Shown here piece by piece: positions 25,441-52,116 of a DNA stretch of 64,000 bases. Below the pieces are notes generated by a model. That model saw only the letters and a program-made list of their open reading frames with translations, was not told the DNA's origin and did not search any database. Position numbers and translations under genes: made by a program. The stretch covers positions 1,563,992-1,627,991 of the forward strand of contig OZ220494.1 in assembly GCA_965116215.1 (NCBI GenBank), given 5' to 3'. Position 1 is the stretch's first letter. Every line of letters starts with the position of its first letter. Origin of the DNA: Bdellovibrionales bacterium (GTDB lineage: Bacteria > Bdellovibrionota > Bdellovibrionia > Bdellovibrionales > JAKFYE01).

Positions 25441-25512
25441 TTATCCACAAACTTTAAAATACGCCATAAAAACTCTCCTTCCATCAACATTTTTTCAGGG
25501 GCATAAGTCATT

Positions 25513-32417: not shown

Positions 32418-32494
32418 GGGCCTATAGCTTAGTTGGTTAAAGCATCCGGCTCATAACCGGAGGATCCGAGGTTCGAGTCCTCGTAGGCCTACCA
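32418..32494 (+). tRNA. tRNA with CAU anticodon (Met or lysidine-modified Ile2; acceptor stem C4/C5 and the AGGCCT-ACCA 3' end favour Ile2)
   Basis: A 77-nt cloverleaf: acceptor GGGCCTA/TAGGCCT (G1-U72), D stem GCTT/AAGC, anticodon stem TCCGG/CCGGA with loop CTCATAA, T arm CGAGG-TTCGAGT-CCTCG, and an encoded CCA. Confidence 0.9.
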
Positions 32495-32764
32495 ATTTTC
32501 TAGAAGATTTTATGGACCTCTCTGACAGAACAGTATGTTGCGTTTTCTAAATCAATTCCATCTGTTCAATTTAAGATTTCTATTTATTGGAAAAAATCAA
32601 TCCTTATGAATCAGAGATTCGAGTCGGTTTTTGAAGGCTTGTTTTTTGGATTTTATTGAGAATTCACCTCTAACAACTTTGGTCTTTTTGGAAAAAGTGC
32701 ATGGAGTGAGGTGTCCCATATTCACAGTTCGACAGTTTTTACTTCTTTATGATAGTTTTAAATT

Positions 32765-33178
32765 GGTTTTGCAGGTGATCGCTGTGTGGGGTATCTGTAG
32801 TTCATGTCTTTTCTTGGACTTGTAAACAGATATGTCAGTACAGAGGAAAGTCCGGACTCCAAATGGCAACGTAGAGGGTAATACCCTCCCATCGCAAGGT
32901 GAGGAACAGTGGAACAGAAAGGATGTCCAGAGCATTGAGCCTAGGGCTGGGAACGGGAAGCCTTGGGGGAGCTGCTGGAGTGAAATCAGCTAAACTCTAC
33001 GTGGAGCAAGATCAAATAGGAGAGCACTTGAGCACGGCCAGTGCAAGCTTTCGGGTGAGATCGCTAGAGGGCTCTTGTGAAAGAGCCCCCAGATGAATGG
33101 TCCCCTCCTAAATTTGTTTTTGTCGAGCAGGTTTAGAAGACAGAATCCGGCTTAACGCAAATCCCTCGATCGATAAAC
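32765..33178 (+). ncRNA. rnpB: RNase P RNA (bacterial type A)
   Basis: The universally conserved P4 strands GAGGAAAGTCCGG (about 32842) and ACAGAATCCGGCTTA (about 33140) are present. A P3-like hairpin TATCTGT...ACAGATA lies upstream of P4. The ends are inferred from partial 5'/3' complementarity (GGTTTT..GATCG..GGGG versus CCCT CGATC G ATAAAC) and are uncertain by about 15 nt. Confidence 0.9.
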
Positions 33179-33365: not shown

Positions 33366-34970
33366 ATGGAGATAGGATCACCTATTCATCATCAAGATCT
33401 CTCTTTTCAAGAGAATCAGAAATCCATGTTAAAGTGTGTCCAAAATTGGAAATCTGCTCTAGAAACGGTTTATAGTGGAGGAGGAGAATCTTCTATTCGA
33501 AGGCATAAAGAGCGAGGCAAATGGACTGCCCGTGAACGCATTAATCAACTGATAGATGCACAGTCCTCATTTCTAGAATTGAGTGCTCTTGCGGCTTGGG
33601 ATATGTATGACAATGTGGCCCCCGGTGCAGGGCTTATTACGGGCATTGGTGTCATTCATGGCCATGAGTGTGTTGTTGTAGCTAATGATGCCACTGTTAA
33701 GGGGGGAACCTATTTCCCTATCACAGTAAAGAAACATTTACGTGCGCAAGAAATTGCTATGGAAAATGGGCTCCCCTGTATCTATCTTGTGGACAGTGGT
33801 GGTGCCTTCCTTCCGCTACAATCAGAGGTTTTTCCAGATCGTGATCACTTTGGAAGAATTTTTTATAATCAAGCCCAAATGTCAGCTATGGGTTTGGCTC
33901 AGATTGCTGTTGTGATGGGGAGTTGTACAGCAGGTGGAGCTTATGTTCCGGCTATGAGTGATGAAAATATCATTGTTAAAGGGAATGGAACTATTTTTTT
34001 AGGAGGCCCGCCCCTTGTAAAGGCTGCCACGGGAGAAACAGTAACATCTGATGAGTTAGGAGGAGGGCATGTTCATTGTGAGGTGAGTGGCGTTACAGAT
34101 CATTTAGCAGACAACGATGAAGAGGCTCTTCTTATTTGTCGGGACATTATAAAAAATCTAAATATTCAAAAAAATATTCCTCTAAAAACTCTTGAACCAA
34201 GAGATCCACTTTTTGATAAAAAAGAACTTTATGGTATTGTTCCCAGTGATTTGCGAAGAACATTTGATATGAAAGAAGTTATTGCACGTATTGTTGATGG
34301 TAGTGAGTTTTATGAATTTAAACCCAGGTATGGAAAAACCTTATTAACGGGCTTTTCACATATTTGGGGATATCCCGTTGGTCTTATTGCAAACAATGGT
34401 GTGCTCTTTGGAGAAAGTGCTCTTAAAGGGGCTCACTTTGTTGAGCTATGTTGTCAAAGGGGAGTTCCTATTGTGTTTTTACAAAACATTACTGGTTTTA
34501 TGGTTGGAAAAAAGTATGAAAATGAGGGTATTGCTAAGGATGGAGCGAAGTTAGTGATGGCTGTTAGCAACGCCAATGTTCCTAAATTTACCGTGGTTAT
34601 TGGAGGATCTTTTGGTGCTGGTAATTATGGTATGTGTGGAAGGGCTTTTCAACCAAGACAGCTATGGATGTGGCCGAATGCACGCATATCCGTTATGGGT
34701 GGTGAGCAAGCAGCAAATGTTTTATTGACAGTGAAAAAGGATCAGCTTCTTAAGAAAAAGAAAACTTGGAGTGAGGAAGAGTGTGATGAGTTTAAAAAGC
34801 CTATTTTAGATAAATATGAAAGAGAAAGTTCAGCCTATTTTTCAACAGCTCGAATATGGGATGACGGTATTATTGACCCCATAGATACACGAAAAGTATT
34901 AGCTCTGGGTATTTCGGCAAGTTTTAACAAAAAATGGGAAAATACTCACTTCGGTATTTTTAGAATGTAA
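33366..34970 (+). CDS. mccB: Methylcrotonyl-CoA carboxylase carboxyltransferase (beta) subunit
   Basis: Long blocks match those I recall from MCCC2/LiuB ([45 protein letters not shown]; [15 protein letters not shown]; [19 protein letters not shown]). Confidence 0.9.
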
Positions 34971-35023
34971 TGAAAAGTCTTTCTGTATTTTCTGCTGATA
35001 TATGAGGTATATGGACTGTTAAT

Positions 35024-35803
35024 ATGAAAACAATAAAAACCACTCAAGATAATGATATTTTTAGAATCACTTTAAATAGACCAGAGGTTCATAATGCATT
35101 TCATCCGGAAATGATAAGTGAGCTGACTGATATATTTAGATCTGTACAGACGAGGCAAGATATCAGGGTTATTGTTTTGAATGGGGAAGGTCCAAGCTTT
35201 TGCTCTGGAGCTGATTTAAATTGGATGAAATCTATGGTGAATTTTTCTTTTGAGGAAAACATGAAGGATGCAGAGAAGTTTCATGATTTATTGACAGCAG
35301 CCATGGAAACACTCACACCTATTATTGGAAGAGTTCATGGCCATGTGTTTGGCGGAGGTCTGGGGCTTTTGGCCATCTGTGATATTGTTGCTGCCGAAAC
35401 TCAAACACAATTTTGTTTTAGTGAAGTGAGAATAGGACTTGTACCTGCTATTATCTTACCCTTTGTATTGTTAAAAGTCGCTCCCTCTTGGATTAGAGAG
35501 TATGCTCTAACAGCTCAATCTTTTGATACAGCTTTAGCAAAGGAAATGCGGTTGATACAGTTTTTTGGTCATCTAAAAGTTGTGGATGAGTATGTAAATC
35601 GTCATATTGATATGTTGAGGTGTTCGGGTCCAGAAGCCATCAGAGAGACTAAGCGGATATTAAATACAGCATCGGGACATTATATTCATGAAACCTCTAA
35701 GGCAGAAACCATAAGAATTATATCTGAACGCAGGATCAGTAAAGAGGGGCAAGAGGGTTTACGCACTTTTTTTGATAAGCAAAAACCTCACTGGTTAAAA
35801 TAG
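35024..35803 (+). CDS. liuC: Enoyl-CoA hydratase family, probable methylglutaconyl-CoA hydratase
   Basis: Crotonase fold motifs (FCSGADL; GHVFGGGLGLLAICDI) and a position between the MCC beta and alpha genes. Confidence 0.8.
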   Translation: MKTIKTTQDNDIFRITLNRPEVHNAFHPEMISELTDIFRSVQTRQDIRVIVLNGEGPSFCSGADLNWMKSMVNFSFEENMKDAEKFHDLLTAAMETLTPIIGRVHGHVFGGGLGLLAICDIVAAETQTQFCFSEVRIGLVPAIILPFVLLKVAPSWIREYALTAQSFDTALAKEMRLIQFFGHLKVVDEYVNRHIDMLRCSGPEAIRETKRILNTASGHYIHETSKAETIRIISERRISKEGQEGLRTFFDKQKPHWLK

Positions 35804-35821
35804 ATATCATTGGTAAAGATT

Positions 35822-37276
35822 ATGAACTTTAAGAAAGTAGCGATTGCAAACCGAGGAGAGGTGGCTGTTCGAATCATTCATGCCTGTAAAGAACTGGGAA
35901 TCGAAACGGCTTTATTACATTCAGATGCAGATGTAGATACAAAGGCCTATCGTCTTGCCGATGAATGTGTATGTATTGGCTCTGGGCCATCTATTGAGAG
36001 CTATTTAAATATTCAAAATAATATTGATGGGTCTTTAAGTGTGGGTGCAGATGCTGTTCATCCGGGGTTTGGCTTCCTTTCAGAAAATCCAAATTTTTCT
36101 AAAGCCTGTAAAGAAGTAGGGATTGTGTTTATAGGGTGTTCTTCGAAGGTCATGGCCTTAATGGGAAATAAAGTAGAGGCCAGAAAAGTGGCAAAGCAGG
36201 CGGGTCTTCTTGTTTTAGAGGGTTTGGAGTCTGCAGATGTTCAGGCGTGTGCGCAATATGCTGAAGAAATAGGTTACCCTGTCATTATAAAAGCCACTGG
36301 GGGAGGAGGGGGGAAGGGATTAAAAATCGTACGCTCTTCAAAAGAGTTTCAGGAGCAATGGTCTTCGGCCCAAAGAGAATCGCAGAGCAGCTTTGGTTCT
36401 TCTGAGGTTTTTTTAGAAAAATATTTAGCTCATGCTAAACACATTGAGGTTCAAGTCTTAGCAGACTCTAAAGGCAATGTAGTGACCGTTGGTGAGCGTG
36501 AGTGTAGTGTTCAAAGGCGGCATCAGAAAATAATCGAAGAGGCCCCTTGTTTATCATTGGATAGTACAACTAAGGAGTCTATGTATGAGGCTTCGCAAAA
36601 GTTAGCCAGTTCTATTGGATATGTTGGAGCAGGAACTGTTGAGTTTTTATATGAAGGGGGGATGTTTTATTTTTTGGAGATGAATACACGACTACAAGTA
36701 GAGCATCCGGTGACAGAGTTAGTGTACGGGATGGATCTTGTTAAGGAGCAAATTCGTATTGCCGAGGGAGCTCCGCTCTCTGTTACACAATCGGAAATTA
36801 TCCCTAGAGGTCATGCTCTCGAATGTCGTTTATATGCAGAAGATGCCTATGCTGGCGGGCTACCGAGCACGGGGATTTTAGGAAGTGTCATTTGGCCTAT
36901 GGGGCCTCATAGACGCTTTGATGTTGGTTTTGAAACGGGAGATGAAATTAAGCCCCTGTATGATTCTATGATTGCTAAAATTATCACATGGGATACGGCT
37001 AGAGCAGAAAACTTAAGAAAAATGCAAGAGGTTTTATCCAATGTGATTGTTTTTGGAGTACAGACAAATATTCCTCTTTTAAGGGAAATTATTCGTCATT
37101 CTGATTTTTCAAAAGGAGTAATGACTACAGAGTTTATAGAGAAGTATTTCTCTGAAGCATTAAAAAAGCCGTCTCCGCCAAAAGAGATTTTAGAGTTAAG
37201 AGACAAGCTATTAACAGATAATATGCAAGTAGTGGGGAGAGTCCCTTCGCCTTGGGTAGCTGATTGGAAATGTTGA
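35822..37276 (+). CDS. mccA: Methylcrotonyl-CoA carboxylase alpha subunit, biotin carboxylase portion (no BCCP domain)
   Basis: Biotin carboxylase motifs (KVAIANRGEVAVRIIHAC; GYPVIIKATGGGGGKGL; EMNTRLQVEHPVTE). The likely ATG is at 35822. The ORF ends right after SPWVADWKC. Confidence 0.88.
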   Translation: MNFKKVAIANRGEVAVRIIHACKELGIETALLHSDADVDTKAYRLADECVCIGSGPSIESYLNIQNNIDGSLSVGADAVHPGFGFLSENPNFSKACKEVGIVFIGCSSKVMALMGNKVEARKVAKQAGLLVLEGLESADVQACAQYAEEIGYPVIIKATGGGGGKGLKIVRSSKEFQEQWSSAQRESQSSFGSSEVFLEKYLAHAKHIEVQVLADSKGNVVTVGERECSVQRRHQKIIEEAPCLSLDSTTKESMYEASQKLASSIGYVGAGTVEFLYEGGMFYFLEMNTRLQVEHPVTELVYGMDLVKEQIRIAEGAPLSVTQSEIIPRGHALECRLYAEDAYAGGLPSTGILGSVIWPMGPHRRFDVGFETGDEIKPLYDSMIAKIITWDTARAENLRKMQEVLSNVIVFGVQTNIPLLREIIRHSDFSKGVMTTEFIEKYFSEALKKPSPPKEILELRDKLLTDNMQVVGRVPSPWVADWKC

Positions 37277-37298
37277 TTTTTTTAAGGGATAAAAGAAT

Positions 37299-37709
37299 AT
37301 GGTGAGACAGAATGTTGCAGGATCCAGTTTATCCAGTGTGGAGACAGCAGGAGGCGTTTTACTATGGGAAAAAATGAAAGATGGGACGCTCTGGGTGCAC
37401 TTCCAAGGTGATGTGTATGTCTTTCACAGGGGATCTCGTCGTCAAAAGAAGGGGGGGGATTTTAGTGAATCACCTCAAGTGATTAAGGCTCCTATGCCGG
37501 GTAAGGTTATACAGCTTTTAAAAAATGAGGGAGATCTTGTTCAAGAGGGTGATGTGATTGTTGTCATGGAGGCCATGAAAATGGAATACAATTTAAAGTC
37601 TATAAAGAGTGGCACAGTTTCTCAAATCACTTGTCAGGTAGGTGATCAGGTCCCATTGGGTCGGCACCTTGTACACATAAAAATTGAAGATGTCGTTCAG
37701 AGCGAATAA
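37299..37709 (+). CDS. Biotin carboxyl carrier (biotinyl domain) portion of the carboxylase alpha subunit, encoded as a separate ORF
   Basis: Biotinylation motif VMEAMKMEY within a lipoyl/biotinyl fold (APMPGKVIQLLKNEGDLVQEGDVIVVMEAMKME). Confidence 0.85.
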   Translation: MVRQNVAGSSLSSVETAGGVLLWEKMKDGTLWVHFQGDVYVFHRGSRRQKKGGDFSESPQVIKAPMPGKVIQLLKNEGDLVQEGDVIVVMEAMKMEYNLKSIKSGTVSQITCQVGDQVPLGRHLVHIKIEDVVQSE

Positions 37710-37819: not shown

Positions 37820-38557
37820 TTACAAAGCTTCGTCGATAATATTTTTTAACTCATCTTCAAGTTTCTTAAGATCCTTAACAAATAAAGTGTGTTTTTTACT
37901 TAAAAGTTTTCTCAAGCGAGGTCCATTCTTATATGATGATATTATCCACTTTGCACTGTCTCTAAAGAACTTGACCGTGAAATCAAAAGTTTTCTCAAAT
38001 GCTTGCTGCAGCGGTAATTCAGCTTTAAGATTTAAACCCACATCTACTAGGAATATTCCCATAGCCATTGAATAAGCCCCTATACCAACCCCCTGAGCAA
38101 AAGCAGCCGCCCCTCCCCCTACAGCAGCACCTCCAGCAATCGATGGGTTTGTGATTAACGGGATTGTGAATAACGCTAATACTAAAATGGGAACACCTAT
38201 ACTCGTTAAGTTAGTTTTTATTAAAAATTTCTTTAGTGGTTTTATACCTATTGGATGGACCAACTTTTCGCAATCTTGACCTAGATAACACTTGTAAAGA
38301 TGAACTCTTTTTAAGGGTTGGTTGGAACTAGGGGGGACTGTGTAGTAAATGGTTTCAGTCCTAATCTCAAGCCATTCCGACTGAGAGAGTGGCTCAATTC
38401 CTTTTTGATAAATCCTAGTTATTTGCCAGTGTTTATACTGCAAATTGCTAATAGGCGGATGAGTTCCTTCTTGCGTCTGTTTAGTTGTTTGGGCCAAAGA
38501 GCCTGTAGAGAGTGTTAATCCCACAGCTAGAGTGAAAATGAATTTTAAAGGGTTCAT
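37820..38557 (-). CDS. Signal-peptide / Gly-Ala-rich (glycine-zipper-like) membrane protein, paralogue 1
   Basis: 245 aa. The signal peptide MNPLKFIFTLAVGLTLSTGSLAQ is nearly identical to that of the 39288-39893 product. It has a Cys pair (YKCYLGQDCEKLV), the segment AGGAAVGGGAAAFAQGVGIGAYSMAMGIF, and a conserved C-terminal RLRKLLSKKxxLFV. Confidence 0.7.
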   Translation of the reverse strand: MNPLKFIFTLAVGLTLSTGSLAQTTKQTQEGTHPPISNLQYKHWQITRIYQKGIEPLSQSEWLEIRTETIYYTVPPSSNQPLKRVHLYKCYLGQDCEKLVHPIGIKPLKKFLIKTNLTSIGVPILVLALFTIPLITNPSIAGGAAVGGGAAAFAQGVGIGAYSMAMGIFLVDVGLNLKAELPLQQAFEKTFDFTVKFFRDSAKWIISSYKNGPRLRKLLSKKHTLFVKDLKKLEDELKNIIDEAL

Positions 38558-38609
38558 AAAAATTCCTCCTGTTACAGGTTAGTCTTATATATATGCCCTA
38601 TGTTTAAGG

Positions 38610-38625
38610 AGCAAGTGCTGTGCTA
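38610..38625 (-). promoter_or_regulatory. Degenerate sigma-54-type promoter (TAGCACAGCACTTGCT; GG->AG at -24)
   Basis: Positional homologue of the consensus promoter at 39946-39961. The same -12 TTGCT is present but the -24 element reads TAGCAC. Confidence 0.45.
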
Positions 38626-38708
38626 GGTTATAGAGTTTGGTTTTTATTTGAAAAAAAAGGGGATTGTTTTTAAAAGGAGCCAACTTCTTGTTTAAAACAA
38701 AACAATGA

Positions 38709-38728
38709 GCAAACTTTATACAGTTTGC
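38709..38728. promoter_or_regulatory. Perfect 20-bp palindrome GCAAACT-TTATAC-AGTTTGC (candidate activator binding site)
   Basis: The 7-bp arms are exactly complementary. It lies 84 bp upstream of the -24 element of paralogue 1 and directly next to the (AAAAC)2 tract. Confidence 0.4.
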
Positions 38729-38856
38729 CAAGTTCTTTTACATTTTTTCATCATTTCAAAGAGTCTGTCTTTAGTTGTCAGGCTTTTAGATTTTATATGT
38801 CACAAATCCCTATATCAGCTCTTTAGAGCCAAGAGTTTTAAGATTTTGCCAGACAA

Positions 38857-39040
38857 GGGGAGGAAAGGGTTTTTGTCTTTGTCTTAAAGCGAGTTTTCCA
38901 AAGCGCAGGGGCGTATCTTCAAGGAGATACAGTTTATTTTCAACTTGAGTATATGAGCTTTAGTCTGGAGCGGAAAAGGATTTTTATCTTTCTTTTAAAG
39001 GGAGTTTTCCAAAGTATAGGGGTGTATTTGTAATTGAGAT
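38857..39040 (+). repeat. Two tandem direct half-copies of the palindromic-element left arm (copy B)
   Basis: ggaaagggtttttgtctttgtcttaaagcgagttttccaaagcgcaggggcgtatcttc and ggaaaaggatttttatctttcttttaaagggagttttccaaagtataggggtgtatttg. Both resemble 40430-40490. Confidence 0.7.
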
Positions 39041-39164
39041 AGCCACATTTTTGAAGGATTTTAAGTGAGAAGTAGAACATATCTGTGACTGTGAAGTTTC
39101 ATAACGCTTAAATCATGTCACTCTGTTTGCGCTTTTTCTTTTGGTAAAAGATCTTAATAAATAG

Positions 39165-39219
39165 TTATAAAAAACCGCTGACAGACACTCTTTGTGTTTT
39201 TGAGAGTCTTCAGCGGTTT
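39165..39219 (-). terminator. Rho-independent terminator of the 39288-39893 gene
   Basis: Inverted repeat AAACCGCTGA(cagacactc...gagagtct)TCAGCGGTTT, followed on the minus strand by TTTTTTATA. Confidence 0.75.
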
Positions 39220-39287
39220 GAAAGTCGTGTTTCAATGAGAGGTTTTGAGTTTTTTGCTCAAACCTTAATTCCCATTAGTGAGAAAAT

Positions 39288-39893
39288 TTATCGTACGTAG
39301 TTTCTGGGCTCCTCTCTTTTCAAAATTATCTTTTTAATAAGATATTCTAAGTTCTGCTCAAGCTGCTCAATATTGCGAACAAATAAGACATCCTTTTTAC
39401 TTAAAAGTTTTCTCAAACGAGAGCCTTCTGTTAAATTTCTAGTTAGATTATGTCCTCCTTTCTTCATTGTTGTTGCTCCTCCTATTAATGAAACTGCACC
39501 CGTGGCTCCTGCTGCTAACGTTGTTGATGGCACTAGGACGACTGCACCCACCATCACTCCTGCCCCGAAGAGCAAAGCTCCGACTCCGAATACGCCAGCT
39601 TTCAAGTTCTCCTGTTTTAACGTGTTTCTTAACTCATTTAAGGTCACCACTTCATCAACCAAGGGTTCACAACTCTCATTGTTATGACGCTCATCTCTAG
39701 TGCATGTATAGACCACAATGGCTGTGAGTTCTTCATTATTTACCTGTTCAGATGCTTTTCGGACCTCAATCCATTTGAGAAAAGAGGGGTCAGCATTTTT
39801 TTCTTTTATTGTGGTGGTTTTTTGAGCCAAAGAGCTGATAGAGAGTGTTAATCCCACAGCTAGAGTGAAAATGAATTTTAAATAGTGATTCAT
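39288..39893 (-). CDS. Signal-peptide / Gly-Ala-rich (glycine-zipper-like) membrane protein, paralogue 2
   Basis: 201 aa. It has signal peptide MNHYLKFIFTLAVGLTLSISSLAQ, a Cys pair (YTCTRDERHNNESCEPLV), the segment GVFGVGALLFGAGVMVGAVV...AAGATGAVSLIGGA, and C-terminal RLRKLLSKKDVLFV. A strong AGGAGG lies upstream of the ATG. Confidence 0.7.
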   Translation of the reverse strand: MNHYLKFIFTLAVGLTLSISSLAQKTTTIKEKNADPSFLKWIEVRKASEQVNNEELTAIVVYTCTRDERHNNESCEPLVDEVVTLNELRNTLKQENLKAGVFGVGALLFGAGVMVGAVVLVPSTTLAAGATGAVSLIGGATTMKKGGHNLTRNLTEGSRLRKLLSKKDVLFVRNIEQLEQNLEYLIKKIILKREEPRNYVR

Positions 39894-39945
39894 AAAAAGT
39901 TCCTCCTGTTATAGGTTAGTCCTATTGTATGTTCTATGTTTAAGG

Positions 39946-39961
39946 AGCAAGTGTTGTGCCA
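39946..39961 (-). promoter_or_regulatory. Consensus sigma-54 (RpoN) promoter TGGCAC-AACAC-TTGCT
   Basis: The minus-strand sequence TGGCACAACACTTGCT matches TGGCAC-N5-TTGCW at every specified position. Its -12 GC lies about 54 nt upstream of the ATG at 39893. Confidence 0.8.
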
Positions 39962-40034
39962 GGTTATAGAAATTGATTTTTTATTTGAAGAAAGGAAGAT
40001 TGTTTTTGCTCTTAAAAGGAGCTAACCTTTTGTT

Positions 40035-40269
40035 AAAACAAAACAAAACAAAACAAAACAAAACAAAACAAAACAAAACAAAACAAAACAAAACAAAACA
40101 AAACAAAACAAAACAAAACAAAACAAAACAAAACAAAACAAAACAAAACAAAACAAAACAAAACAAAACAAAACAAAACAAAACAAAACAAAACAAAACA
40201 AAACAAAACAAAACAAAACAAAACAAAACAAAACAAAACAAAACAAAACAAAACAAAACAAAACAAAAC
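40035..40269. repeat. Perfect pentanucleotide microsatellite (AAAAC)47, read as (GTTTT)47 on the gene strand
   Basis: 235 bp with no interruption, counted directly and consistent with the KQNKT-periodic ORF in the track. The homologous position at 38694-38703 has 2 units. Confidence 0.98.
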
Positions 40270-40274
40270 AATGA

Positions 40275-40294
40275 GCAAACTTTATACAGCTTGC
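40275..40294. promoter_or_regulatory. 20-bp near-palindrome GCAAACT-TTATAC-AGCTTGC (homologue of 38709-38728, one arm mismatch)
   Basis: Located immediately distal to the microsatellite, 314 bp upstream of the sigma-54 -24 element. Confidence 0.35.
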
Positions 40295-40424
40295 CAAATT
40301 GTTTTACAGTTTTCCATCATTTCAAAGAGTCTGCCTTTAATGGTCAGGCGTTTAGATTTTATATGTCACAAATCCCTATATCAGCTCTTTAGAGCCAAGA
40401 GTTTTTAGCTTTTACCAGACAATA

Positions 40425-40557
40425 GGGGAGGAAAGGATTTTGATCTTTCTATTAAAGCGAGTTTTTCAAAGCGCAGGGCGTATTTCGAAGAAAGACGAGC
40501 CTGCGGCCTTTGAAGCTGTTTGAGCTTGAAGGGGAAGATAAAAATCCTTTTCCTACA
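40425..40557 (+). repeat. ~135-bp palindromic (MITE/REP-like) element, copy C
   Basis: Arms GGAAAGGATTTTGATCTTTCTATTAAAGC ... GCTTGAAGGGGAAGATAAAAATCCTTTTCC. It aligns end to end with the reverse complement of 25301-25440. Confidence 0.8.
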
Positions 40558-40701
40558 GTGACTCATGCGTGAGAAAATCGCTTGTTCTATGCCCAATCAA
40601 ATCAAGCACTATTCAGTCAAGGCTTTTAAACTTTACCAAAGATAGCTTGTTTTATTCTAATGATATCAAGTTTTATCTAACTTCTATTTTTAGGTTTTTG
40701 T

Positions 40702-40765
40702 GGAGACGAGCTGCGGACCTCAGAGTTATTTGAGCTTTTGGAAGGTTTGAGAAAAAACTCTTCCT
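40702..40765 (+). repeat. Dispersed repeat module (related to the right half of the palindromic element), copy D
   Basis: ggagacgagctgcggacctcagagttatttgagcttttggaaggtttgagaaaaaactcttcct is about 87% identical to the reverse complement of 25158-25220. Confidence 0.8.
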
Positions 40766-40981: not shown

Positions 40982-41941
40982 TTATATTTTACTTCGCTCC
41001 TTAAGACTTAAAGGATGGTGTTTTTCTAAGGTGGTGCGTAGAGAATCAAAATCTAAGTGCGTGTACTTTTCTGTTGTTTTCAATGAAGAGTGTCCAAGCA
41101 GATCCTGTATGGTACGTAGATCTGCTCCTCCACGCAGAAGATGGGTGGCGTAGCTATGCCTTAGGGCATGAGGAGAGAGGGGCCGCAAAAGTCCTGCTTG
41201 AGTGCCACAGGATCTGATAAGGGTATAGGCCTGTCGTTCAGAGAGTTTGGGGTTTAAAAGATATCCTGTTTTTTTATTAGAGGTTTTCAATTCTTCAGTG
41301 AGTATGGAAGGCAGACTAATATAGCGTTCTTTAGATCCCTTTCCTAATATGCGAAGTTTGGATTTCTCTAATATGACGTCTTTCCACTGTGAGTGACAGG
41401 CTTCGGAAACTCTTAGTCCACCGCCATAGAGAAGTAGAAAGAGCCGTCGTTTTCTAATCAAAATGTCCGACTTGGGCTGATCTTTAAACGCTTTTTTAAA
41501 ATAGTTCAAAACAGCTAACACTTCATCCAGGGAGAGGTATCGTGGGAGTTTTTCATCAACCTTTGGGAGAGTGATGGTGGTCGAGAGATCATGAACTAAA
41601 TGTCCTTCTTCAAACAAAAACCGCAAAAAACTTTTAAGGGTTGAAAATTTTCTCTGGCGTGTGGAAATAGCTAAATCTGACCAAATTTTCTTCCCCACAT
41701 CGATGAGCAGTTGACAGTTTAGATCTAAATTTTCCAATTTTTGGGACCTTTTATTTTTTTCAATATAATCGGCTAGTTGTAAAAAATCGGAAGAATAGGC
41801 CCGAAGAGTCTCAGGACTAAAGGACTTTAAATTCTCTAATGATTCCAACCAAATATCAAAATACTTGGACAGGAAAGGTTTTGGGGCTTTGTCAGAATTT
41901 CTCACTAAAATTTCCAAGATAATGCATTTTTTTACTTGCAT
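40982..41941 (-). CDS. Tyrosine site-specific recombinase, XerC/XerD family
   Basis: Catalytic signature GGGLRVSEA...HALRHSYATHLL...LLGHSSLKTTEKYTH, plus an N-terminal SAM-like domain (TLRAYSSDFLQLADYI). Confidence 0.88.
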   Translation of the reverse strand: MQVKKCIILEILVRNSDKAPKPFLSKYFDIWLESLENLKSFSPETLRAYSSDFLQLADYIEKNKRSQKLENLDLNCQLLIDVGKKIWSDLAISTRQRKFSTLKSFLRFLFEEGHLVHDLSTTITLPKVDEKLPRYLSLDEVLAVLNYFKKAFKDQPKSDILIRKRRLFLLLYGGGLRVSEACHSQWKDVILEKSKLRILGKGSKERYISLPSILTEELKTSNKKTGYLLNPKLSERQAYTLIRSCGTQAGLLRPLSPHALRHSYATHLLRGGADLRTIQDLLGHSSLKTTEKYTHLDFDSLRTTLEKHHPLSLKERSKI

Positions 41942-42080: not shown

Positions 42081-43157
42081 ATGTCAGAACGTGAAAGTTT
42101 TATACTCCCATCCAATAATCAGAGTTCCACATTTAGTCAAAAGGGGCAGGTCCGCAATAAAAATAAGGTGAATATCATCTATAAGTCTGAGGTGATTGAT
42201 CAGCTTTTGAAGATGATTGATCGTGTGGCCCAAAGCGATGCCAGCGTTCTCATTTTAGGAGAGTCGGGAACAGGTAAAGAACTTATAGCTAAGGCTCTTC
42301 ATGAGAAGAGCACACGAAAGTATAAACCTTTTGTGCCTATTAATTGTGGTGCTTTAAGGGAGTCGCTTTTAGAGAGTGAACTTTTTGGTCATGAAAGAGG
42401 TGCCTTTACAGGGGCCTATATGCGAAAAACAGGTTTAGCTGAAGTCGCTAATGGTGGAACATTATTTTTGGATGAAATAGGCGAACTCACTCCGGGTATT
42501 CAGGCTAAACTTTTGCGTTTTATTCAAGAGGGCGAGATTTATAGAGTGGGAGGAAAAGATCCTATCAAGGTGGATATTCGCTTGGTGAGTGCAACAAATA
42601 AAGATTTAGAATCAGAAGTTGTGCGAGGAATATTTAGGGAAGATCTTTTCTATAGAATTAATACTATTACTGCACAAGTTCCTGCTCTCAGGCGTCGAAA
42701 AGAAGATATTCCTTTACTTATCCAGCATTTCTTAACTTCAGGTTCTTATAGGTATCTCAATAGAGGACATCAGGTGAGCCCTGAAGCTATGGAGATTTTG
42801 CAGAAATATGATTGGCCGGGAAATATTCGTGAATTGCAAAACATTTGTGAACGCACACAAATATTGACAGAAGGTCACACTATTATGCCTGGAGACTTGC
42901 CTGATAGTATTAGACATCCGGATCAAAAGACTGTCATTGATGATTATGATCCGACTCTGACTCTTCATGAGCTAGAGAGACGTTATATCCTTAAGGCTTT
43001 AAGTTATTTTGAGGGTAATAAAACACGAGCGGCTCATGCTCTCGGTATTACGATCAAAACACTTTATAATAAGCTCCATGAATATGGTGAATTTGAAAAC
43101 TATGCTATTCATTCAAAACCCAAATCTTCCTCTATAAAGAAAACAGCATCAAATTAA
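42081..43157 (+). CDS. Sigma-54-dependent transcriptional activator lacking a receiver or sensor domain (AAA+ core + Fis-type HTH only)
   Basis: The AAA+ core begins about 35 aa from the N-terminus (GESGTGKELIAKALH; the sigma-54 contact loop ESELFGHERGAFTGA; WPGNIRELQN). The C-terminal HTH is NKTRAAHALGITIKTLYNKL. Confidence 0.88.
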   Translation: MSERESFILPSNNQSSTFSQKGQVRNKNKVNIIYKSEVIDQLLKMIDRVAQSDASVLILGESGTGKELIAKALHEKSTRKYKPFVPINCGALRESLLESELFGHERGAFTGAYMRKTGLAEVANGGTLFLDEIGELTPGIQAKLLRFIQEGEIYRVGGKDPIKVDIRLVSATNKDLESEVVRGIFREDLFYRINTITAQVPALRRRKEDIPLLIQHFLTSGSYRYLNRGHQVSPEAMEILQKYDWPGNIRELQNICERTQILTEGHTIMPGDLPDSIRHPDQKTVIDDYDPTLTLHELERRYILKALSYFEGNKTRAAHALGITIKTLYNKLHEYGEFENYAIHSKPKSSSIKKTASN

Positions 43158-43179: not shown

Positions 43180-44616
43180 ATGATTATGGGCTTATTATTC
43201 AGGGTAAGGGTTTTCTTACTTTTCATTGTTTGTTTTTCTTTTTCCTTATTATATGGGGCCGATGAAAAGGATTATAGAAATCTACGTCCATCTGTTGGGA
43301 TTGTTCAGTCCATTAAGGGTTATGGGACTGGTTTTTTTATAACAGAAAATTTATTTGTCACTGCCTACCATAATATTCAAGCTTCAGATAATGCGAGTAA
43401 TGAGCGATTGGGAAGAGATCCGTTGCGTGTCTATACTCTGGGGAAAAAGGATTATGGAAGAGTTCTAGTTGTTGATCCTCAAAATGATTTGGCGATTATT
43501 AAGATGCAAAGAAATGATTATAAGCCACTCAGTATAGGAAGTGATACAGATATTATTCGGGGTAAGGAAACTTTTACTATTGGTTATCCCCCCGATATTG
43601 CTTTGATCAATAGAGGAGAAAATGAAGCAGTTATAAGAGCTGTTGTGGCTCAGGGCTTTATTGGGATGAAGATGGGGAATGAAATCTTTGGTATTACAGC
43701 TTTTGCTTCAAAAGGGAGTAGTGGCTCCCCTGTTTTTTCAGAGGATTTGAAAGTCGTTGGGGTAGTTGTATTAATTACTCCAAAATCAATTTCAGGCTAT
43801 CAGACTTTTGTTACGCCGATCCATAAATTAAAGACTCTTATTGATAGAAATAAAGACCTTTTAGAAAGAGAGGGTGGAATGGGTTTTGGTCATATCTCTT
43901 CTGAGCCGTTGAAGAGGCGTGCTTTTGATGCCGATGTCAAAACAGCAGAGGATATGTTTATTTTGGGTTTAATATATAAAGAGGGTTTGAGACATAGACG
44001 GCCTAACTTTCAGAAAGCTCATTATTGGCATGAACGTGCAGCGAAGAGTGGATATAGAGATGCTGCTTTTTCCGTGGCCCAAATGTATTATACGGGCAAA
44101 GGGGTGAAAAAAGATTTTCAAAAGGCGTTTTACTGGTTTCAGGTGGCCGCAACTCATGGACATAGGGAGTCGCAATTTCATGTTGCACTTATGCACTATC
44201 GAGGGGAGGGAACAGCTCAGAACTTTTCAAAGGCCTTTGAAGGTTTTAAGAGCCTTGCAGAACAGAGGAAGTATAGAGGGGCATCAGCTCAGGTGGCGTT
44301 AATGTATTATGCGGGCAAAGGGGTAAAAAAAGATTTTCAAAAGGCATTTTACTGGTTTCAGGTGGCTGCAACCCATGGACATAGGGACTCTCAGTATAAT
44401 GTTGCACTTATGCACTATCGAGGGGAGGGAACAGCTCAGAACTTTTCAAAGGCCTTTGAAGGTTTTAAGAGCCTTGCAGAAAAGGGACATAAAATAGCGC
44501 AACATGATCTGTCTGTAATGTATGCTAGAGGAGAGGGAGTTTTAAAAAATCTTAAAAAAGCAACATATTGGTGGAAGAAGAGCAAAGGGGAAGAAGGTTC
44601 ACAGTGTTTTTATTAA
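43180..44616 (+). CDS. Secreted trypsin-like (S1) serine protease domain fused to C-terminal Sel1/SLR repeats
   Basis: Signal peptide. The catalytic triad context is VTAYHN, NDLAIIK and GSSGSPVF. There are at least 5 Sel1-type repeats (A..MY..G.GV.KD..KA..W...AA..G). The start lies 22 nt after the activator gene. Confidence 0.8.
   Translation: MIMGLLFRVRVFLLFIVCFSFSLLYGADEKDYRNLRPSVGIVQSIKGYGTGFFITENLFVTAYHNIQASDNASNERLGRDPLRVYTLGKKDYGRVLVVDPQNDLAIIKMQRNDYKPLSIGSDTDIIRGKETFTIGYPPDIALINRGENEAVIRAVVAQGFIGMKMGNEIFGITAFASKGSSGSPVFSEDLKVVGVVVLITPKSISGYQTFVTPIHKLKTLIDRNKDLLEREGGMGFGHISSEPLKRRAFDADVKTAEDMFILGLIYKEGLRHRRPNFQKAHYWHERAAKSGYRDAAFSVAQMYYTGKGVKKDFQKAFYWFQVAATHGHRESQFHVALMHYRGEGTAQNFSKAFEGFKSLAEQRKYRGASAQVALMYYAGKGVKKDFQKAFYWFQVAATHGHRDSQYNVALMHYRGEGTAQNFSKAFEGFKSLAEKGHKIAQHDLSVMYARGEGVLKNLKKATYWWKKSKGEEGSQCFY
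44083..44487 (+). repeat. Tandem 219-bp (73-aa, two Sel1 units) near-identical duplication inside the protease-Sel1 gene
   Basis: cgggcaaaggggt(g/a)aaaaaagattttcaaaaggc... recurs at 44093 and 44312. About 175 bp align with roughly 13 substitutions and no indels. Confidence 0.85.
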
Positions 44617-46719: not shown

Positions 46720-48135
46720 CTATTCATTGGCTGCTTCATCTCTTAAATCATCATCTGCTGAACCCAGTCCATACTTATCAACTCTGTATCTCATGGATCG
46801 AAATGTAATATTTAAAAGCTTAGCAGCCTTTTTTTTGACTCCCGAGCTTTTGTGGATCGCTTTAATCAATAACTCTTTTTCAATTTGTCCAATGATCTTT
46901 TCTAGATCAATTCCCTCATTTGTAATTTCAATTTCATGACTAGAGGCTATTTTTCGTCCAGATGATGTATTGACAAAAGGGGGTAGAGACTCAGGTAATA
47001 TCACAGAGCCACCCTCAAGAGCCACTGTCCTTTCAATAATATTTTCTAATTCACGGACATTTCCCGGATATTGATAAGACTTTAATGTACTCATGGCTTC
47101 ATCAGAGATGCCGCTAATACTCTTATTCAATCGCTCATTGTATTTTTTTAAAAAATGATGAGCTAAAGTAGGGATATCTACAGATCGATTTCTCAACGGA
47201 GGTGTTTTAATTAAAATCACATTCAATCTATAATAAAGATCTTCTCTAAATTGCCCTGAGCGAACCATTTCCTCTAAGTTTCTATTTGTAGCAGCTATAA
47301 TCCTCACATTTATTTTAATATCTTCTGTTGCTCCTATTCGGCGAATAGTTCTTTCTTGAATGGCTCTGAGCAGTTTCACTTGAATATTCAGTGGAAGCTC
47401 TCCAACTTCATCGAGAAAGAGTGTGCCGCTGTTAGCAACTTCAAAGAGACCTAACTTATCGGAAACTGCACCCGTGAAAGCTCCTTTTTTATGACCAAAC
47501 ATCTCTGACTCTATAAGATTTTCAGGAATAGCCCCACAGTTAACAGTTACAAAGGGGTTTTCTTTTAAGGGACCACTGTAATGAATAGCCTTGGCTACCA
47601 TTTCTTTGCCTGTTCCACTTTCTCCAATAATTAATACATTTGTGGGAGACTGAGAAACACGTTCAATGAGATCATAAATTTTATGCATTTCATCTGAATT
47701 ACCTACTAAATTTTTGAAGCTGTATTCTTTATTTAACTCCTTCTTTAAATTTCTGTTTTCAATTTCTAGATTTTTACTTCGGAGCGCATGTTTAATATTA
47801 ATTCTGACTTCATCAATTTTAAATGGTTTTGTGATATAGTCATAGGCTCCCATTTTCATGATTTCCACGGCGGACTCTGTAGTTCCAAATGCCGTAATGA
47901 TTATAAATAGCGTGTCAGGACAATTATTTTTTACGTATTCTAAGACTTCAGTTCCCGTTAGGTTAGGCATTTGCAAATCTGATATGATCAGATCAAAGGC
48001 TCTCTTTTTTATCATATCTATTGCCACTTGACCATCTTCAGCGAGGGTGACATCATAGCCTTCTTTTTTGAGCATGATATCTAAAAATTCTCTTATGGAT
48101 TCCTCATCATCAATAACAAGAATTCGTGGCTTCAC
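46720..48135 (-). CDS. pilR: Sigma-54-dependent response regulator, PilR-like (REC + AAA+ + HTH)
   Basis: Receiver domain (ILVIDDE...DLIISDLQMP), AAA+ core (GESGTGKEMVAKAIH, GAFTGA) and a Fis-type HTH. It lies directly downstream of a PilS-like kinase in the pil cluster. Confidence 0.85.
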   Translation of the reverse strand: MKPRILVIDDEESIREFLDIMLKKEGYDVTLAEDGQVAIDMIKKRAFDLIISDLQMPNLTGTEVLEYVKNNCPDTLFIIITAFGTTESAVEIMKMGAYDYITKPFKIDEVRINIKHALRSKNLEIENRNLKKELNKEYSFKNLVGNSDEMHKIYDLIERVSQSPTNVLIIGESGTGKEMVAKAIHYSGPLKENPFVTVNCGAIPENLIESEMFGHKKGAFTGAVSDKLGLFEVANSGTLFLDEVGELPLNIQVKLLRAIQERTIRRIGATEDIKINVRIIAATNRNLEEMVRSGQFREDLYYRLNVILIKTPPLRNRSVDIPTLAHHFLKKYNERLNKSISGISDEAMSTLKSYQYPGNVRELENIIERTVALEGGSVILPESLPPFVNTSSGRKIASSHEIEITNEGIDLEKIIGQIEKELLIKAIHKSSGVKKKAAKLLNITFRSMRYRVDKYGLGSADDDLRDEAANE

Positions 48136-48152
48136 TAAGCACTCCCTTCCCT

Positions 48153-49832
48153 TTAGGCTATGAAACTTTTATTATCTAATTTTTTAGGTTTCTCTGCAAG
48201 TCTATTAAACTCTAAGATGAACTCAGTTCCTTTATTGATATCGCTGTTTACAAAAATCTGTCCTCCATGATGTTCAATAATCTTGTGAACTGTAGCAAGC
48301 CCGAGACCTGTGCCTCCTTTTTTTGTTGTTAAAAAAGGCTCAAAAAGTCTTGCTAGTATTTCTGGAGGCATACCTATGCCATTATCTTGGACAATGACGA
48401 CTAGAGTGCCTCTTTTTCGAAAATAACTTTTGACATGTAATATGGGGTTCTCTGTTTTATTCATTGCTTGATAACTATTAATAAAAAGATTTAAGAAAAC
48501 TTGCTTTAATTTATCATATGTTCCTTCAATTTGATGATTCGTATTTAATTCCAATTTGTGTTTTACATTTTTATTTAAATTTTCATTCATCTTTATCATC
48601 GAAAGGCATTCTAGGATTAATGTATTTATATCTATTGGATCAAAGCGTTCCTCCTCTTTTTTTGTAAAGTTTAGAAAGTCATTGATAAGCCCGTTTAATC
48701 TGTCAATCTCTCTTAATGTAATAGTCATAAGTTTATTATCTTCGGGAGATGCTTTATCTTTCATCAACTGTATACTTCCGCTAATACTAGCCAATGGATT
48801 TCGTATTTCGTGTGCAATGCTTGCTGATAATTGACCAATAGCAGCTAGCTTTTCTGATCGTCTCATAGCCTTTTCAAGCCGTTTAATTTGAGTGAGGTCT
48901 TCAAATATTAAAACATAGCCACAAAACAGACCTTCGCGATCATAGATAGAACATGAATTGATTCCTAAGAGCAATTTTTCATCTTTTGAGTTCACATAAG
49001 GCATTTCAAAACGTTCTGTTTTTTTCTCTTGATAAGCTGTTTTATAAACTTCAATCACTCGATCCATTTCCGGGTGAATCTGTTTAAGACTTAAACCTAT
49101 AATTTCCTTCTGATGTCCTAATATTTTTAAGGCAGACTTATTTGCGTGAAGGATTTGAAAATTTTTATCAATGGCCATTAAGCCAATTGTGAGGTTTTCG
49201 ACAATCATTTCATTTAAGTTTTTTAGGATTTTAATATCTTTTTCTTTTTTAATGAGAATATCGCCCATTAAGTTGAGCTGTTCACTTAAATGTCCACTTA
49301 GGGCAGCTATAACAAAGAATGCCAAGTTGTTAATGATTAAGGAAAGGTAAAGGCTTGGCCCCTCCAATTTGGAATCTAGAGCCAATAATAAACTGAAACA
49401 AATAGATGTTAGGAGAGATAAAGTAAAGGCACCGTGCTTTTGGAAAATGAATCCACATAGAATAATATTTACAAGATACATGAACAAAAATATGGGTTGT
49501 GCAATATCAGTATAGAAAATTAGCCCTGTGATAAAAAGAGTATCTATAAAAAATAAAAATGCAGACCAAATATGAGTGTGCTTTTTTTCTATAAAGAATA
49601 GATATAGAGAATGAATAATAAAATTTCCTGCCAACATACAGTATAAAGGTAGAATGACTTCTATATTTATAAACTCTGGTTGTTTTAGTTGAAAGAGAAC
49701 TGTCAGTAATGTAATAGTACTTAAAAATAAAATCCGTACTGTTTCAATGATAAGTAATCGCTTTTTAAATCTCTGGGAGTCTTTTTCGAGATCTGTGGTC
49801 ATATGAAATATTTGAAAAAATAATGACCTCAT
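48153..49832 (-). CDS. pilS: Sensor histidine kinase, PilS-like (about 6 TM helices, PAS, HisKA, HATPase_c)
   Basis: H-box SASIAHEIRNPLASI and G-boxes (DNGIGM; GGTGLGLATV). The likely start is the ATG at 49832 (MRSLFF), 4 nt after the pilC stop. The longest ORF (49880) would overlap pilC. Confidence 0.8.
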   Translation of the reverse strand: MRSLFFQIFHMTTDLEKDSQRFKKRLLIIETVRILFLSTITLLTVLFQLKQPEFINIEVILPLYCMLAGNFIIHSLYLFFIEKKHTHIWSAFLFFIDTLFITGLIFYTDIAQPIFLFMYLVNIILCGFIFQKHGAFTLSLLTSICFSLLLALDSKLEGPSLYLSLIINNLAFFVIAALSGHLSEQLNLMGDILIKKEKDIKILKNLNEMIVENLTIGLMAIDKNFQILHANKSALKILGHQKEIIGLSLKQIHPEMDRVIEVYKTAYQEKKTERFEMPYVNSKDEKLLLGINSCSIYDREGLFCGYVLIFEDLTQIKRLEKAMRRSEKLAAIGQLSASIAHEIRNPLASISGSIQLMKDKASPEDNKLMTITLREIDRLNGLINDFLNFTKKEEERFDPIDINTLILECLSMIKMNENLNKNVKHKLELNTNHQIEGTYDKLKQVFLNLFINSYQAMNKTENPILHVKSYFRKRGTLVVIVQDNGIGMPPEILARLFEPFLTTKKGGTGLGLATVHKIIEHHGGQIFVNSDINKGTEFILEFNRLAEKPKKLDNKSFIA

Positions 49833-49836
49833 TGGT

Positions 49837-51039: not shown

Positions 51040-52116
51040 TTAGAAACCAGCCTTTTTGATAAGACGGTCTAGTTCTTCTGGGTCAGGACTATGTTTAAAG
51101 GCTTCTTTAAGCTCTACTTTTCTCTTTAGAATCAAGTTGAGTAGAGATTGATTCATTGTTTGCATTCCTGTTTTGGCTTGTCCGACTTGCATGTTGCTAT
51201 ACACTTGATGCAATTTATCCTCTCTAATTAGATTTCGTATGGCCGGTGTCGGAACGAGCACTTCATAGGCCAGTTCAAGTCCTCCACTTTTTCCAGGTAA
51301 AAGTTGCTGAGAGATAATACCAACTAATATAAAGCTCATTTGTACTCGGACTCTATTTTGTTGCTCTGATGGGAAAACAGTAACAAGTCGACTTACCGTC
51401 TGAACAGCACTATTTGTATGTAGTGTTGTAAGGACAAGGTGACCTGTTTCTGCTAAGCGTAGGGCTTGCTCAATAGTTTCCAAGTCTCTGAGTTCTCCAA
51501 TGAGGCAGTAATTCGGATCTTGTCTTAAGAGGTGTTTCGTGGAATTTTGATAAGACCAGGTGTCAGGCCCTACTTCTCTTTGAGAGACAATGCTCTGTTT
51601 GTGGTGGTGAATATATTCTATAGGGTCTTCGATGGTAATGATATGACTTCTATGTTCTGCGTTGACCTTATCTATTAGAGATGCGAGTGTTGTCGATTTT
51701 CCTGACCCTGTTGGCCCTGTTACTAATATTAATCCATTGGGTGCATTTGTAAAATTTGCGACGGAAGAAGAAAGCCCTAATTGTTCAAAGTTAGGAATTT
51801 TATAGGGAACTCTACGAAAGGCACCTGACACCGCCCCTTTTTGATAGAATAGATTTCCTCTAAATCGTGCGGTCTGTTTCCATCCAAAACTGAAATCTAG
51901 CTCTTTTGTCTCTTCAAATCTTGCTTTTTGTTTATCTGTTAAAACAGAATAACAAAGACGTTTTGTATCTTCGCTTGTTAGCTTAGGGGCTTTTATTCTT
52001 AAGATCTGCCCCCCTATACGTACAATAGGTGCAGAACCTGTGACAATATGTAGATCTGTTGCATGCTCTTTATCAATAACAACTTTTAATATCTGTTGTA
52101 ATGTGAGGTTGATCAT
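51040..52116 (-). CDS. pilT: Twitching-motility retraction ATPase PilT
   Basis: Walker A GPTGSGKST, HIITIEDPIEY, RQDPNYCLIGELRD, and a His box (TGHLVLTTLHTNSA). Confidence 0.92.
   Translation of the reverse strand: MINLTLQQILKVVIDKEHATDLHIVTGSAPIVRIGGQILRIKAPKLTSEDTKRLCYSVLTDKQKARFEETKELDFSFGWKQTARFRGNLFYQKGAVSGAFRRVPYKIPNFEQLGLSSSVANFTNAPNGLILVTGPTGSGKSTTLASLIDKVNAEHRSHIITIEDPIEYIHHHKQSIVSQREVGPDTWSYQNSTKHLLRQDPNYCLIGELRDLETIEQALRLAETGHLVLTTLHTNSAVQTVSRLVTVFPSEQQNRVRVQMSFILVGIISQQLLPGKSGGLELAYEVLVPTPAIRNLIREDKLHQVYSNMQVGQAKTGMQTMNQSLLNLILKRKVELKEAFKHSPDPEELDRLIKKAGF

Follow-up and report, generated by a model that had tools for sequence, protein, structure and literature searches.

Introduction

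Simple repeats located upstream of a core promoter can modulate gene expression in bacteria. The TAAA tract of nadA in Neisseria meningitidis alters the spacing of distal promoter elements and in this way modulates expression (PMC2791445), and the T-tract of sabA in Helicobacter pylori is a spacer repeat that also modulates expression (PMC4081817). Conserved control regions can also be joined to divergent proteins, as in the upstream homology box lipoproteins of Borrelia burgdorferi (ospE/ospF/elp), which combine a conserved upstream and leader sequence with divergent, mosaic mature proteins, a pattern attributed to recombination (Marconi et al. 1996, PMC178399, as presented in PMC10016077). 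At the protein level, SlyB and YfgH are glycine-zipper lipoproteins with a small periplasmic domain and a Gly-rich transmembrane hairpin, which respond to stress and oligomerise in the membrane (bioRxiv 10.64898/2025.12.22.696046). In this work, a stretch of 64,000 nt from a Bdellovibrionales bacterium (contig OZ220494.1), hereafter called the window and used with its own coordinates, was analysed around two tandem genes on its minus strand, gene A (37820..38557, 245 aa) and gene B (39288..39893, 201 aa), which recall these systems in different respects.

As in nadA and sabA, a simple repeat lies upstream of the core promoter of gene B, between distal sites and the polymerase site, where the number of units would alter spacing and phasing and not the reading frame. 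However, the core promoter is here of the sigma-54 type and the distal element would be the enhancer of an AAA+ activator, and neither nadA nor sabA uses a sigma-54 enhancer. Moreover, the unit is 5 bp long, the tract comprises 47 units and 237 bp, and it is seen here in a single sequence. Like the upstream homology box genes as they are presented in PMC10016077, A and B share the upstream region and the leader while their mature proteins diverge in a mosaic fashion. Unlike those genes, again by that presentation, they belong to an unrelated protein family and organism, they are a chromosomal tandem and are not carried by prophage plasmids, they have a second short conserved tract near the 3' end, and their variable part is a hydrophobic insert. 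The likeness to SlyB and YfgH concerns only the architecture, that is, an exported protein with a predicted small periplasmic domain and a putative Gly-rich hairpin. In contrast to them, A and B show no glycine-zipper Pfam or fold match, the putative hairpin interrupts the globular domain, and the signal is of the signal-peptidase-I type, with no lipobox. Finally, a -24/-12 promoter, an upstream palindrome and a neighbouring activator with AAA+ (GAFTGA) and helix-turn-helix (HTH) domains are shared with the regulons of sensor-less activators (PspF-psp, HrpR/S-hrpL). This locus differs from them in that no PspA-like or HrpV-like partner was found nearby, its presumed targets have no relationship with the Psp or Hrp proteins, and the activator is linked to them by proximity only.

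We hold with moderate confidence that A and B are members of a rare family of envelope proteins, that their sigma-54 control module and signal peptide have been homogenised with each other, and that the spacer of B has expanded into a 237-bp microsatellite. The novelty would lie in the orphan family and, possibly, in a sigma-54 enhancer tuned by a repeat. An initial annotation of the region, made from the sequence alone, had described the two genes as mosaic paralogues; it mentioned neither the sigma-54 promoter, nor the candidate enhancer palindrome, nor the microsatellite between them. The analyses of genes and homologues reported below are computations from sequence (hidden Markov model, alignment, fold and AlphaFold-based methods).

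Two paralogues with conserved ends

Both open reading frames (ORFs) were confirmed, their products being identical to the homologues P0001 (A) and P0005 (B), and each is preceded by a strong Shine-Dalgarno sequence (AGGAGGAA). Gene B is the shorter paralogue and has the same architecture as gene A: a signal peptide, a beta domain with two cysteines, a Gly/Ala-rich hydrophobic insert and a C-terminal strand and helix that carry LRKLLSKK. A long G+C-rich hairpin followed by U6 (39166..39219, minus strand; RNA fold z=-5.5) forms an intrinsic terminator of B, and A and B are therefore separate transcription units.

The proteins are only 29% identical (BLASTP, E=1e-17), and this identity is distributed very unevenly along the DNA. 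A 55-nt repeat element at the distal edge of the shared region has 88% identity in the two copies. Next comes a block of 163 nt (38694..38856 in A, 40260..40422 in B) with 92.6% identity and no gaps, which in A holds a palindrome, a second palindrome (GCTCTAAAGAGC) and a run of 55 nt identical to B. The promoter-proximal DNA presents 83% identity over 135 aligned nt. The signal-peptide codons, 1-23 in A (MNPLKFIFTLAVGLTLSTGSLAQ; 38489..38557, minus strand) and 1-24 in B (39822..39893, minus strand), reach 87% at the nucleotide level, including an identical run of 44 nt, and those of A form the 3' end of the homogenised 5' module. In the core, on the other hand, 33% of the alignment columns are identical with gaps counted, a random level, and identity rises again to 66% in the last 102 nt. 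The longest identical runs measure 55, 44, 30 and 23 nt. The mosaic structure initially proposed for these genes is thus confirmed, with a 5' end that is 83-93% identical against 33% in the core, and several of its details need adjustment. The shared upstream DNA, given before as about 300 bp, runs for about 350 bp, up to 38915 in A and 40482 in B, and in B it is broken by the 237-bp (TTTTG)47 repeat (40035-40271). The identical block near the 3' end does exist, with 23 nt encoding LRKLLSKK (37893..37915 in A and 39394..39416 in B, minus strand) and not 25 nt encoding RLRKLLSKK. Likewise, the two-cysteine domain is present, although its cysteines are arranged as C-x5-C in A and as C-x10-C in B in place of the Cys-x(6-11)-C loop that had been described.

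A codon test was used to compare the number of identical residues encoded by the same codon with the expectation from the codon usage of 15 long ORFs of the window. In the signal peptide, 17 of the 19 identical residues use the same codon, against 7.2 expected (p<5e-6), and at the C-terminus 12 of 17, against 5.9 expected (p=0.0017). Neither the N-domain (7/17 against 7.4 expected, p=0.69), whose synonymous sites are saturated between A and B, nor the hydrophobic insert (1/6 against 1.9 expected, p=0.90) shows any excess. Protein conservation therefore does not account for the identity of the ends, which have been kept at the DNA level.

Such ends could have been preserved with no conversion at all, if purifying selection had acted strongly on the DNA or RNA of the 5' region and the C-terminal block, through regulatory sites, mRNA structure or signals for translation or export, and the remainder had drifted. 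The upstream DNA does hold plausible functional sites, LRKLLSKK is nearly invariant across the family, and the signal peptide is fairly conserved in proteins of other sources (P0007 and P0008). Nevertheless, selection alone would hardly produce a non-coding stretch of some 350 bp that is 83-93% identical and contains identical runs of 30-55 nt, beside a saturated core. Furthermore, the conserved stretch includes a dispersed repeat, which is an unlikely regulatory site, and the copies differ at the -24 GG, where a sigma-54 promoter is under the strongest constraint. Selection as the sole cause is, in our opinion, very doubtful.

Each gene has a closer partner elsewhere in the genome, P0002 for A (54%, or 57% by tblastn) and P0003 for B (80%). 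As judged from these comparisons, A and B are old paralogues and not recent duplicates of each other. Since both have closer partners elsewhere and their N-domain is saturated, the nearly identical 5' module must have moved between old paralogues, that is, by gene conversion. The conserved ends are best read in this way, as concerted evolution between old paralogues: at the 5' end, an upstream and leader region at 83-93% identity stands against a core at 33%, together with a synonymous excess. The gene conversion suggested in the initial annotation is therefore supported by the same-codon excess at both ends.

The other suggestion made there, a cassette-like diversification of an exposed domain, was not supported: the difference in the core reflects old paralogy, and the hypervariable part is the hydrophobic insert. 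A cassette-type antigenic variation would use the conserved ends as recombination anchors to swap an exposed variable core between copies, which agrees with the mosaic pattern of A and B and, even more sharply, with that of B and P0003, where residues 1-89 and 161-190 are 100% identical and residues 101-150 only 30-45%. There are also five copies in a small genome, and a tyrosine recombinase gene adjoins B. However, both copies of the window are complete genes with promoter region, Shine-Dalgarno sequence, signal peptide and, in B, terminator, so neither is silent. The two are repeated in direct orientation, and neither the promoter nor the genes are bordered by inverted repeats or recombination sites. 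The middles of B and P0003 are still alignable homologues and not unrelated swapped cassettes, the recombinase (40982-41941) looks like an ordinary XerC/XerD-type enzyme, and by these alignments the part that evolves fast between close paralogues is the Gly/Ala-rich hydrophobic insert, probably buried in the membrane and not obviously an exposed domain. This alternative seems improbable to us.

An invertible promoter or shufflon was considered as well and rejected: A and B are in direct orientation, no inverted repeats lie within the upstream regions, and the only ones detected have their partner 15 kb away. The dispersed repeat at the distal edge of the shared DNA is an element of about 130 nt that forms a hairpin (40427..40556; terminal inverted arms, DNA fold z=-6.0), with half copies at 38856-38910 and 38967-39021 and an inverted copy at 25290-25444. 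Another repeat, of 69 nt, is common to 25166-25234 and 40688-40756, in the intergenic regions at 25.1-25.6 kb and 40.4-40.8 kb. Both may be elements of the miniature inverted-repeat transposable element (MITE) or repetitive extragenic palindromic (REP) type.

Sigma-54 promoter and candidate enhancer

Promoters of the sigma-54 type require a GG at -24 and a GC at -12, at a fixed distance from each other, the -24 GG being nearly invariant and required for sigma-54 binding, and their transcription depends on an activator bound upstream that contacts the polymerase via DNA looping. The window was scanned with the pattern TGGCAC-N5-TTGCW, and the only match with no mismatches in the 64 kb is TGGCACAACACTTGCT (39946..39961, minus strand), located upstream of B. 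It presents the -24 GG and the -12 GC and ends 53 nt before the ATG. Around 0.03 exact matches would be expected by chance, according to our own estimate from base composition. A homologue of 292 aa from a Bdellovibrionales metagenome-assembled genome (MAG) has a near-consensus sigma-54 promoter too, TGGCATCTTTCTTGCT, which ends exactly 53 nt before its ATG, with the same spacing as in B, and a 22-nt inverted repeat lies about 125 bp further upstream. In A, the element at the same position relative to the ATG is degenerate (TAGCACAGCACTTGCT; 38610..38625, minus strand): it has one mismatch, the -24 GG being changed to AG (TAGCAC..TTGCT), and on its sequence gene A fails the -24 GG requirement of a sigma-54 promoter. 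The leader in the 5' module of both genes has about 42 nt and carries the strong Shine-Dalgarno sequence.

Upstream of A, the palindrome GCAAACT-N6-AGTTTGC (38709..38728; 7+7, perfect) is centred about 105 bp from the -12 element, the textbook position for an activator site of a sigma-54 promoter. Its counterpart upstream of B (40275..40294) has one mismatch, and its distance from the promoter exceeds that in A by 230 bp, with starts at -401 versus -171, that is, about 336 bp versus about 105 bp upstream of the -12 element. These are the only two good matches to the palindrome in the window, one upstream of each gene, and this 20-bp sequence is a candidate enhancer where the activator would bind.

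The 163-nt block could have another function, as a small RNA or an attenuator leader, in which a sigma-70-like promoter (CTGATA-17-TAAAAT) would give rise to an RNA of about 90 nt, terminated by the hairpin of the palindrome and the T-rich tract, with (TTTTG)n extending the U-tract. The promoter-like site is found at matching positions in A and B, the hairpin was picked up as a terminator-like structure, and the single difference in the stem (A to G) maintains the pairing as G-U. However, the promoter scan found 8 sites versus 8.3 expected in shuffled sequence, the fold of the putative RNA shows no unusual stability (z of -0.8 and -2.3), and Rfam gave no match in the intergenic DNA. The hairpin contains only 3 G-C pairs, the tract that follows begins with CAUUG, and the distance of the palindrome to the sigma-54 promoter of A is the one expected for an activator site. 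A regulatory RNA is hardly likely here, and the palindrome is better considered as the putative enhancer. The block also contains a small ORF on the plus strand (MSKLYT..., 38705-38887 and 40271-40408), which was discarded as coding sequence: its 9 nucleotide differences produce 8 amino acid changes and are spread 4/3/2 over the codon positions.

Two sigma-54 activators are encoded in the window. The one at 42081..43157 (plus strand), 2 kb from B, has an AAA+ domain with GAFTGA and an HTH_8 domain (Pfam and NCBIfam matches), has no N-terminal sensory or receiver domain and stays below every NCBIfam equivalog cut-off. It is possibly the activator of A and B, for which its proximity is the only link. 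A PspA-like partner was looked for near this gene and none was found; the neighbouring 229-aa ORF encodes a DedA/VTT-domain protein. Directly after the activator there is a trypsin-like protease fused to six Sel1 repeats (43180-44616), with an internal duplication of 219 nt at 44037-44474. The second activator is a PilR-like response regulator next to a PilS-like histidine kinase, both adjoining pilC, pilT and pilB (46720-53849, minus strand). Within this stretch no sigma-54 promoter match better than 2 mismatches was detected.

The (TTTTG)47 microsatellite of gene B

The extra distance in B is due to a pentanucleotide microsatellite located between the palindrome and the sigma-54 promoter (40035..40271, 237 bp), which reads (AAAAC)47.4 on the plus strand and (TTTTG)n in the orientation of the gene, with 100% matches and a score of 474 in Tandem Repeats Finder. 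At this site copy A carries just 2 units, from which it follows that the tract of B has expanded from a seed of that size. Slippage is the way in which long perfect microsatellites mutate, and a tract this pure and long should be highly prone to it. At 10.5 bp per turn, the 230-bp displacement of the palindrome corresponds to 21.9 helical turns; a value so near a whole number would arise about 1 in 5 times by chance and is weak evidence. Each unit of 5 bp spans about half a turn of the helix, and adding or removing one should turn the enhancer to the other face of the DNA relative to the promoter. The length of the repeat may in this way alter the expression of B.

The following scenario would bring these features together. 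Each gene would be its own transcription unit, headed by a 5' module of about 350 bp composed of the dispersed hairpin repeat, the conserved block with the 20-bp palindrome, the -24/-12 promoter, the leader of about 42 nt and the signal peptide. The A-type and B-type genes would have diverged long ago, and gene conversion would then have homogenised the 5' module and the first 23 codons and, to a lesser degree, the region of the C-terminal motif, giving rise to the mosaic. Both copies would depend on sigma-54 and an activator, possibly the sensor-less one 2 kb away. The copies would not be equivalent, A having lost the -24 GG and B having expanded its 2-unit seed to (TTTTG)47, with the enhancer moved 230 bp off. 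Slippage would change both the distance and the helical face between enhancer and promoter, and a heritable and reversible variation in the expression of B could result.

A bolder proposal, unlikely although conceivable, is that the whole locus works as a contingency switch. The pentanucleotide tract, hypermutable, would set the distance and face between enhancer and promoter, each slip of about half a turn toggling the contact of activator and polymerase, and conversion would move variants of the 5' module, which differ in having an intact or defective -24 element and in the presence or absence of the repeat, among the five paralogues, so that envelope proteins would be expressed in a stochastic and combinatorial manner. 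If the repeat does tune the geometry between enhancer and promoter, phase variation by microsatellites would extend to enhancer-dependent sigma-54 promoters, and to a Bdellovibrionales-like lineage with a 1.8-Mb genome, outside the classic host-adapted pathogens. A full-text search of the literature found no example of microsatellite variation at an enhancer-dependent sigma-54 promoter, and to our knowledge no phase variation of a sigma-54 promoter by a microsatellite has been described. If the repeat has no effect, the locus would be a case of ordinary concerted evolution in a small family of hypothetical proteins.

It could also be that A and B are both regulatory cripples and the microsatellite is neutral junk, the functional members being the three copies located elsewhere in the genome. 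This would suit the GG to AG change in A and the 237-bp insertion in B; the small genome (1.82 Mb) would fit a relaxed selection or repair, and one of the MAG homologues is apparently frameshifted. On the other side, both ORFs are intact and maintain the family motif and the two conserved cysteines, and the perfect purity of the 47 units implies recent or ongoing slippage and not an old decay. The displacement close to a whole number of turns also speaks against it, with the weakness already mentioned. We regard a crippled regulation of both copies as unlikely and continue to prefer a homogenised module with an expanded spacer in B.

A second long and pure simple-sequence repeat is present in the window, a perfect (TAGATG)9 at 53309-53362. 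It is inside the pilB-like ORF (52113-53849, minus strand), where it encodes (ST)9 in the linker after the N-terminal domain.

An orphan family of exported proteins

When 5.8 billion protein clusters were searched with A, only five proteins were recovered, all of them on one contig of 1,824,586 bp. These are the five paralogues of the 1.82-Mb genome (A, B, P0002, P0003 and P0004), and they answer the genome-wide count of family members that the initial annotation had recommended. An exhaustive profile search of 1.84 billion representative proteins gave 16 clusters at E<1e-3. A scan of genomes representative of species found homologues in the Bdellovibrionales MAG, the only relatives with a named source. 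Scans of metagenomes from the Joint Genome Institute (JGI) and of viral contigs showed no relatives, and a protein search with a family profile from which the insert had been removed gave no matches. With a profile built from all 18 members, three members already known were recovered among the candidates listed. A and B matched no model in Pfam, NCBIfam, PADLOC or PHROGs and no PDB sequence, in agreement with the first reading that no family could be recognised, and their structural models gave no fold match. On these searches, A and B belong to a rare and undescribed orphan family of exported envelope proteins.

The alignment of 18 family sequences revealed a conserved N-domain, (Y/W)L(D/E)IR ... 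GIxVYKC-x(4-10)-CxPLVxEVVTxEELRxxLxxxN, and a conserved C-terminal motif, GxxLRKLLSxKDVLFVxNLxxLExxL, with an insert of 53-172 aa between them. The insert contains 24-44% of Gly+Ala and, in all members but one, about 85% of small or hydrophobic residues. It carries 7-30 small-xxx-small motifs and hydropathy peaks above 2. Several members of the family have a lipobox in place of the signal-peptidase-I site found in A and B.

The AlphaFold2 (AF2) models made for A and B agree with each other. The predicted local distance difference test (pLDDT) is about 90 for the N-terminal sheet and the helix that follows, and equally so for a short strand and helix at the C-terminus; the insert stays below 50 in both models. 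Since the other strands are all N-terminal, the C-terminal strand must pair with that sheet. The models suggest that the conserved domain is assembled from two parts that lie apart in the sequence, an N-terminal beta-sheet with one cysteine pair and a long helix, and a C-terminal strand and helix with G-x-LRKLLSxKDVLFV. They likewise suggest that this periplasmic domain is split by the variable Gly/Ala-rich hydrophobic insert. Of the architecture described initially, the signal peptide, the two-cysteine domain, the Gly/Ala-rich segment and the C-terminal helix stand, and the last of them would be part, together with a strand, of the conserved globular domain instead of a free amphipathic tail. 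The insert most likely forms a membrane hairpin with both ends in the periplasm. No glycine-zipper Pfam family was found at E<=0.1 in the 18 members, nor at E<=1 for A and B. As for the biochemical role, our most likely guess is a membrane-embedded, oligomerising envelope protein of the glycine-zipper type. The family, with its unusual layout of a globular domain split by a hypervariable, presumably membrane-embedded insert, may mark an envelope function specific to this lineage.

Bdellovibrionales is an order that contains predatory bacteria, and these proteins might be secreted glycine-zipper pore-formers, that is, toxins acting on prey or competitors, and not resident envelope proteins. The Gly/Ala-rich small-xxx-small repeats of the insert are consistent with this, as are very weak, sub-threshold matches to the type VI secretion system (T6SS) effector Ssp4 and to MakA, and the fact that the only named relatives are in a Bdellovibrionales MAG. 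However, all these matches are far below the family cut-offs, there is no immunity-like small ORF beside A or B, a place in the envelope of the producing cell is suggested by the Sec signal peptide or lipobox, and the insert of P0019 is non-hydrophobic. We assign little probability to a toxin function, and a role in the own envelope is preferred.

The explanation as a whole, from the sigma-54 module to the membrane insert, has to be weighed against several observations that do not favour it. Concerning the proteins, the insert of P0019 is charged and not hydrophobic, both flanks of the insert are positively charged, which makes the membrane and the topology uncertain, and the AF2 models rely on 18 sequences and have a mean pLDDT of 69-72. 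Concerning regulation, the other two MAG homologues have no recognisable sigma-54 promoter, one of them being inside an operon and the other apparently frameshifted, and beside the MAG homologues there is neither an activator gene nor a Xer-like gene. The 5' module of the other three paralogues of the genome is known only at the protein level, through their signal peptides. The palindrome with its T-rich tract also scores as a weak terminator. Moreover, looping over more than 300 bp is usually tolerant of distance and phase, so the repeat might have little effect.

The MAG homologues present a recurrent neighbourhood. All three are directly downstream of ankyrin-repeat genes, some with a lipoprotein signal (L001 4977-5357; L002 3879-5069 and 6669-7703; L003 1464-4132), and two of the three, in L002 and L003, are also near genes of WG-repeat proteins. 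Two members are about 6.4 kb apart on one contig. The homologue at L002 5268-6099 seems frameshifted near its 3' end, where tblastn placed the LRKLLS motif in a different frame from the main ORF, and it could be a pseudogene or the product of an assembly error.

Other features of the window

On the downstream side, a methylcrotonyl-CoA-carboxylase-like operon (33366-37709) converges on gene A, and a tRNA gene (32418-32491) and a bacterial class A RNase P RNA (32763-33170) precede this operon. Further along the window, two ORFs on the minus strand (55118-55858 and 55972-57156) have no Pfam match and contain long coding tandem repeats, of 84 nt x 4.5 (55433-55810) and 102 nt x 3.2 (56635-56965), and further short repeats appear at 57474-57683.

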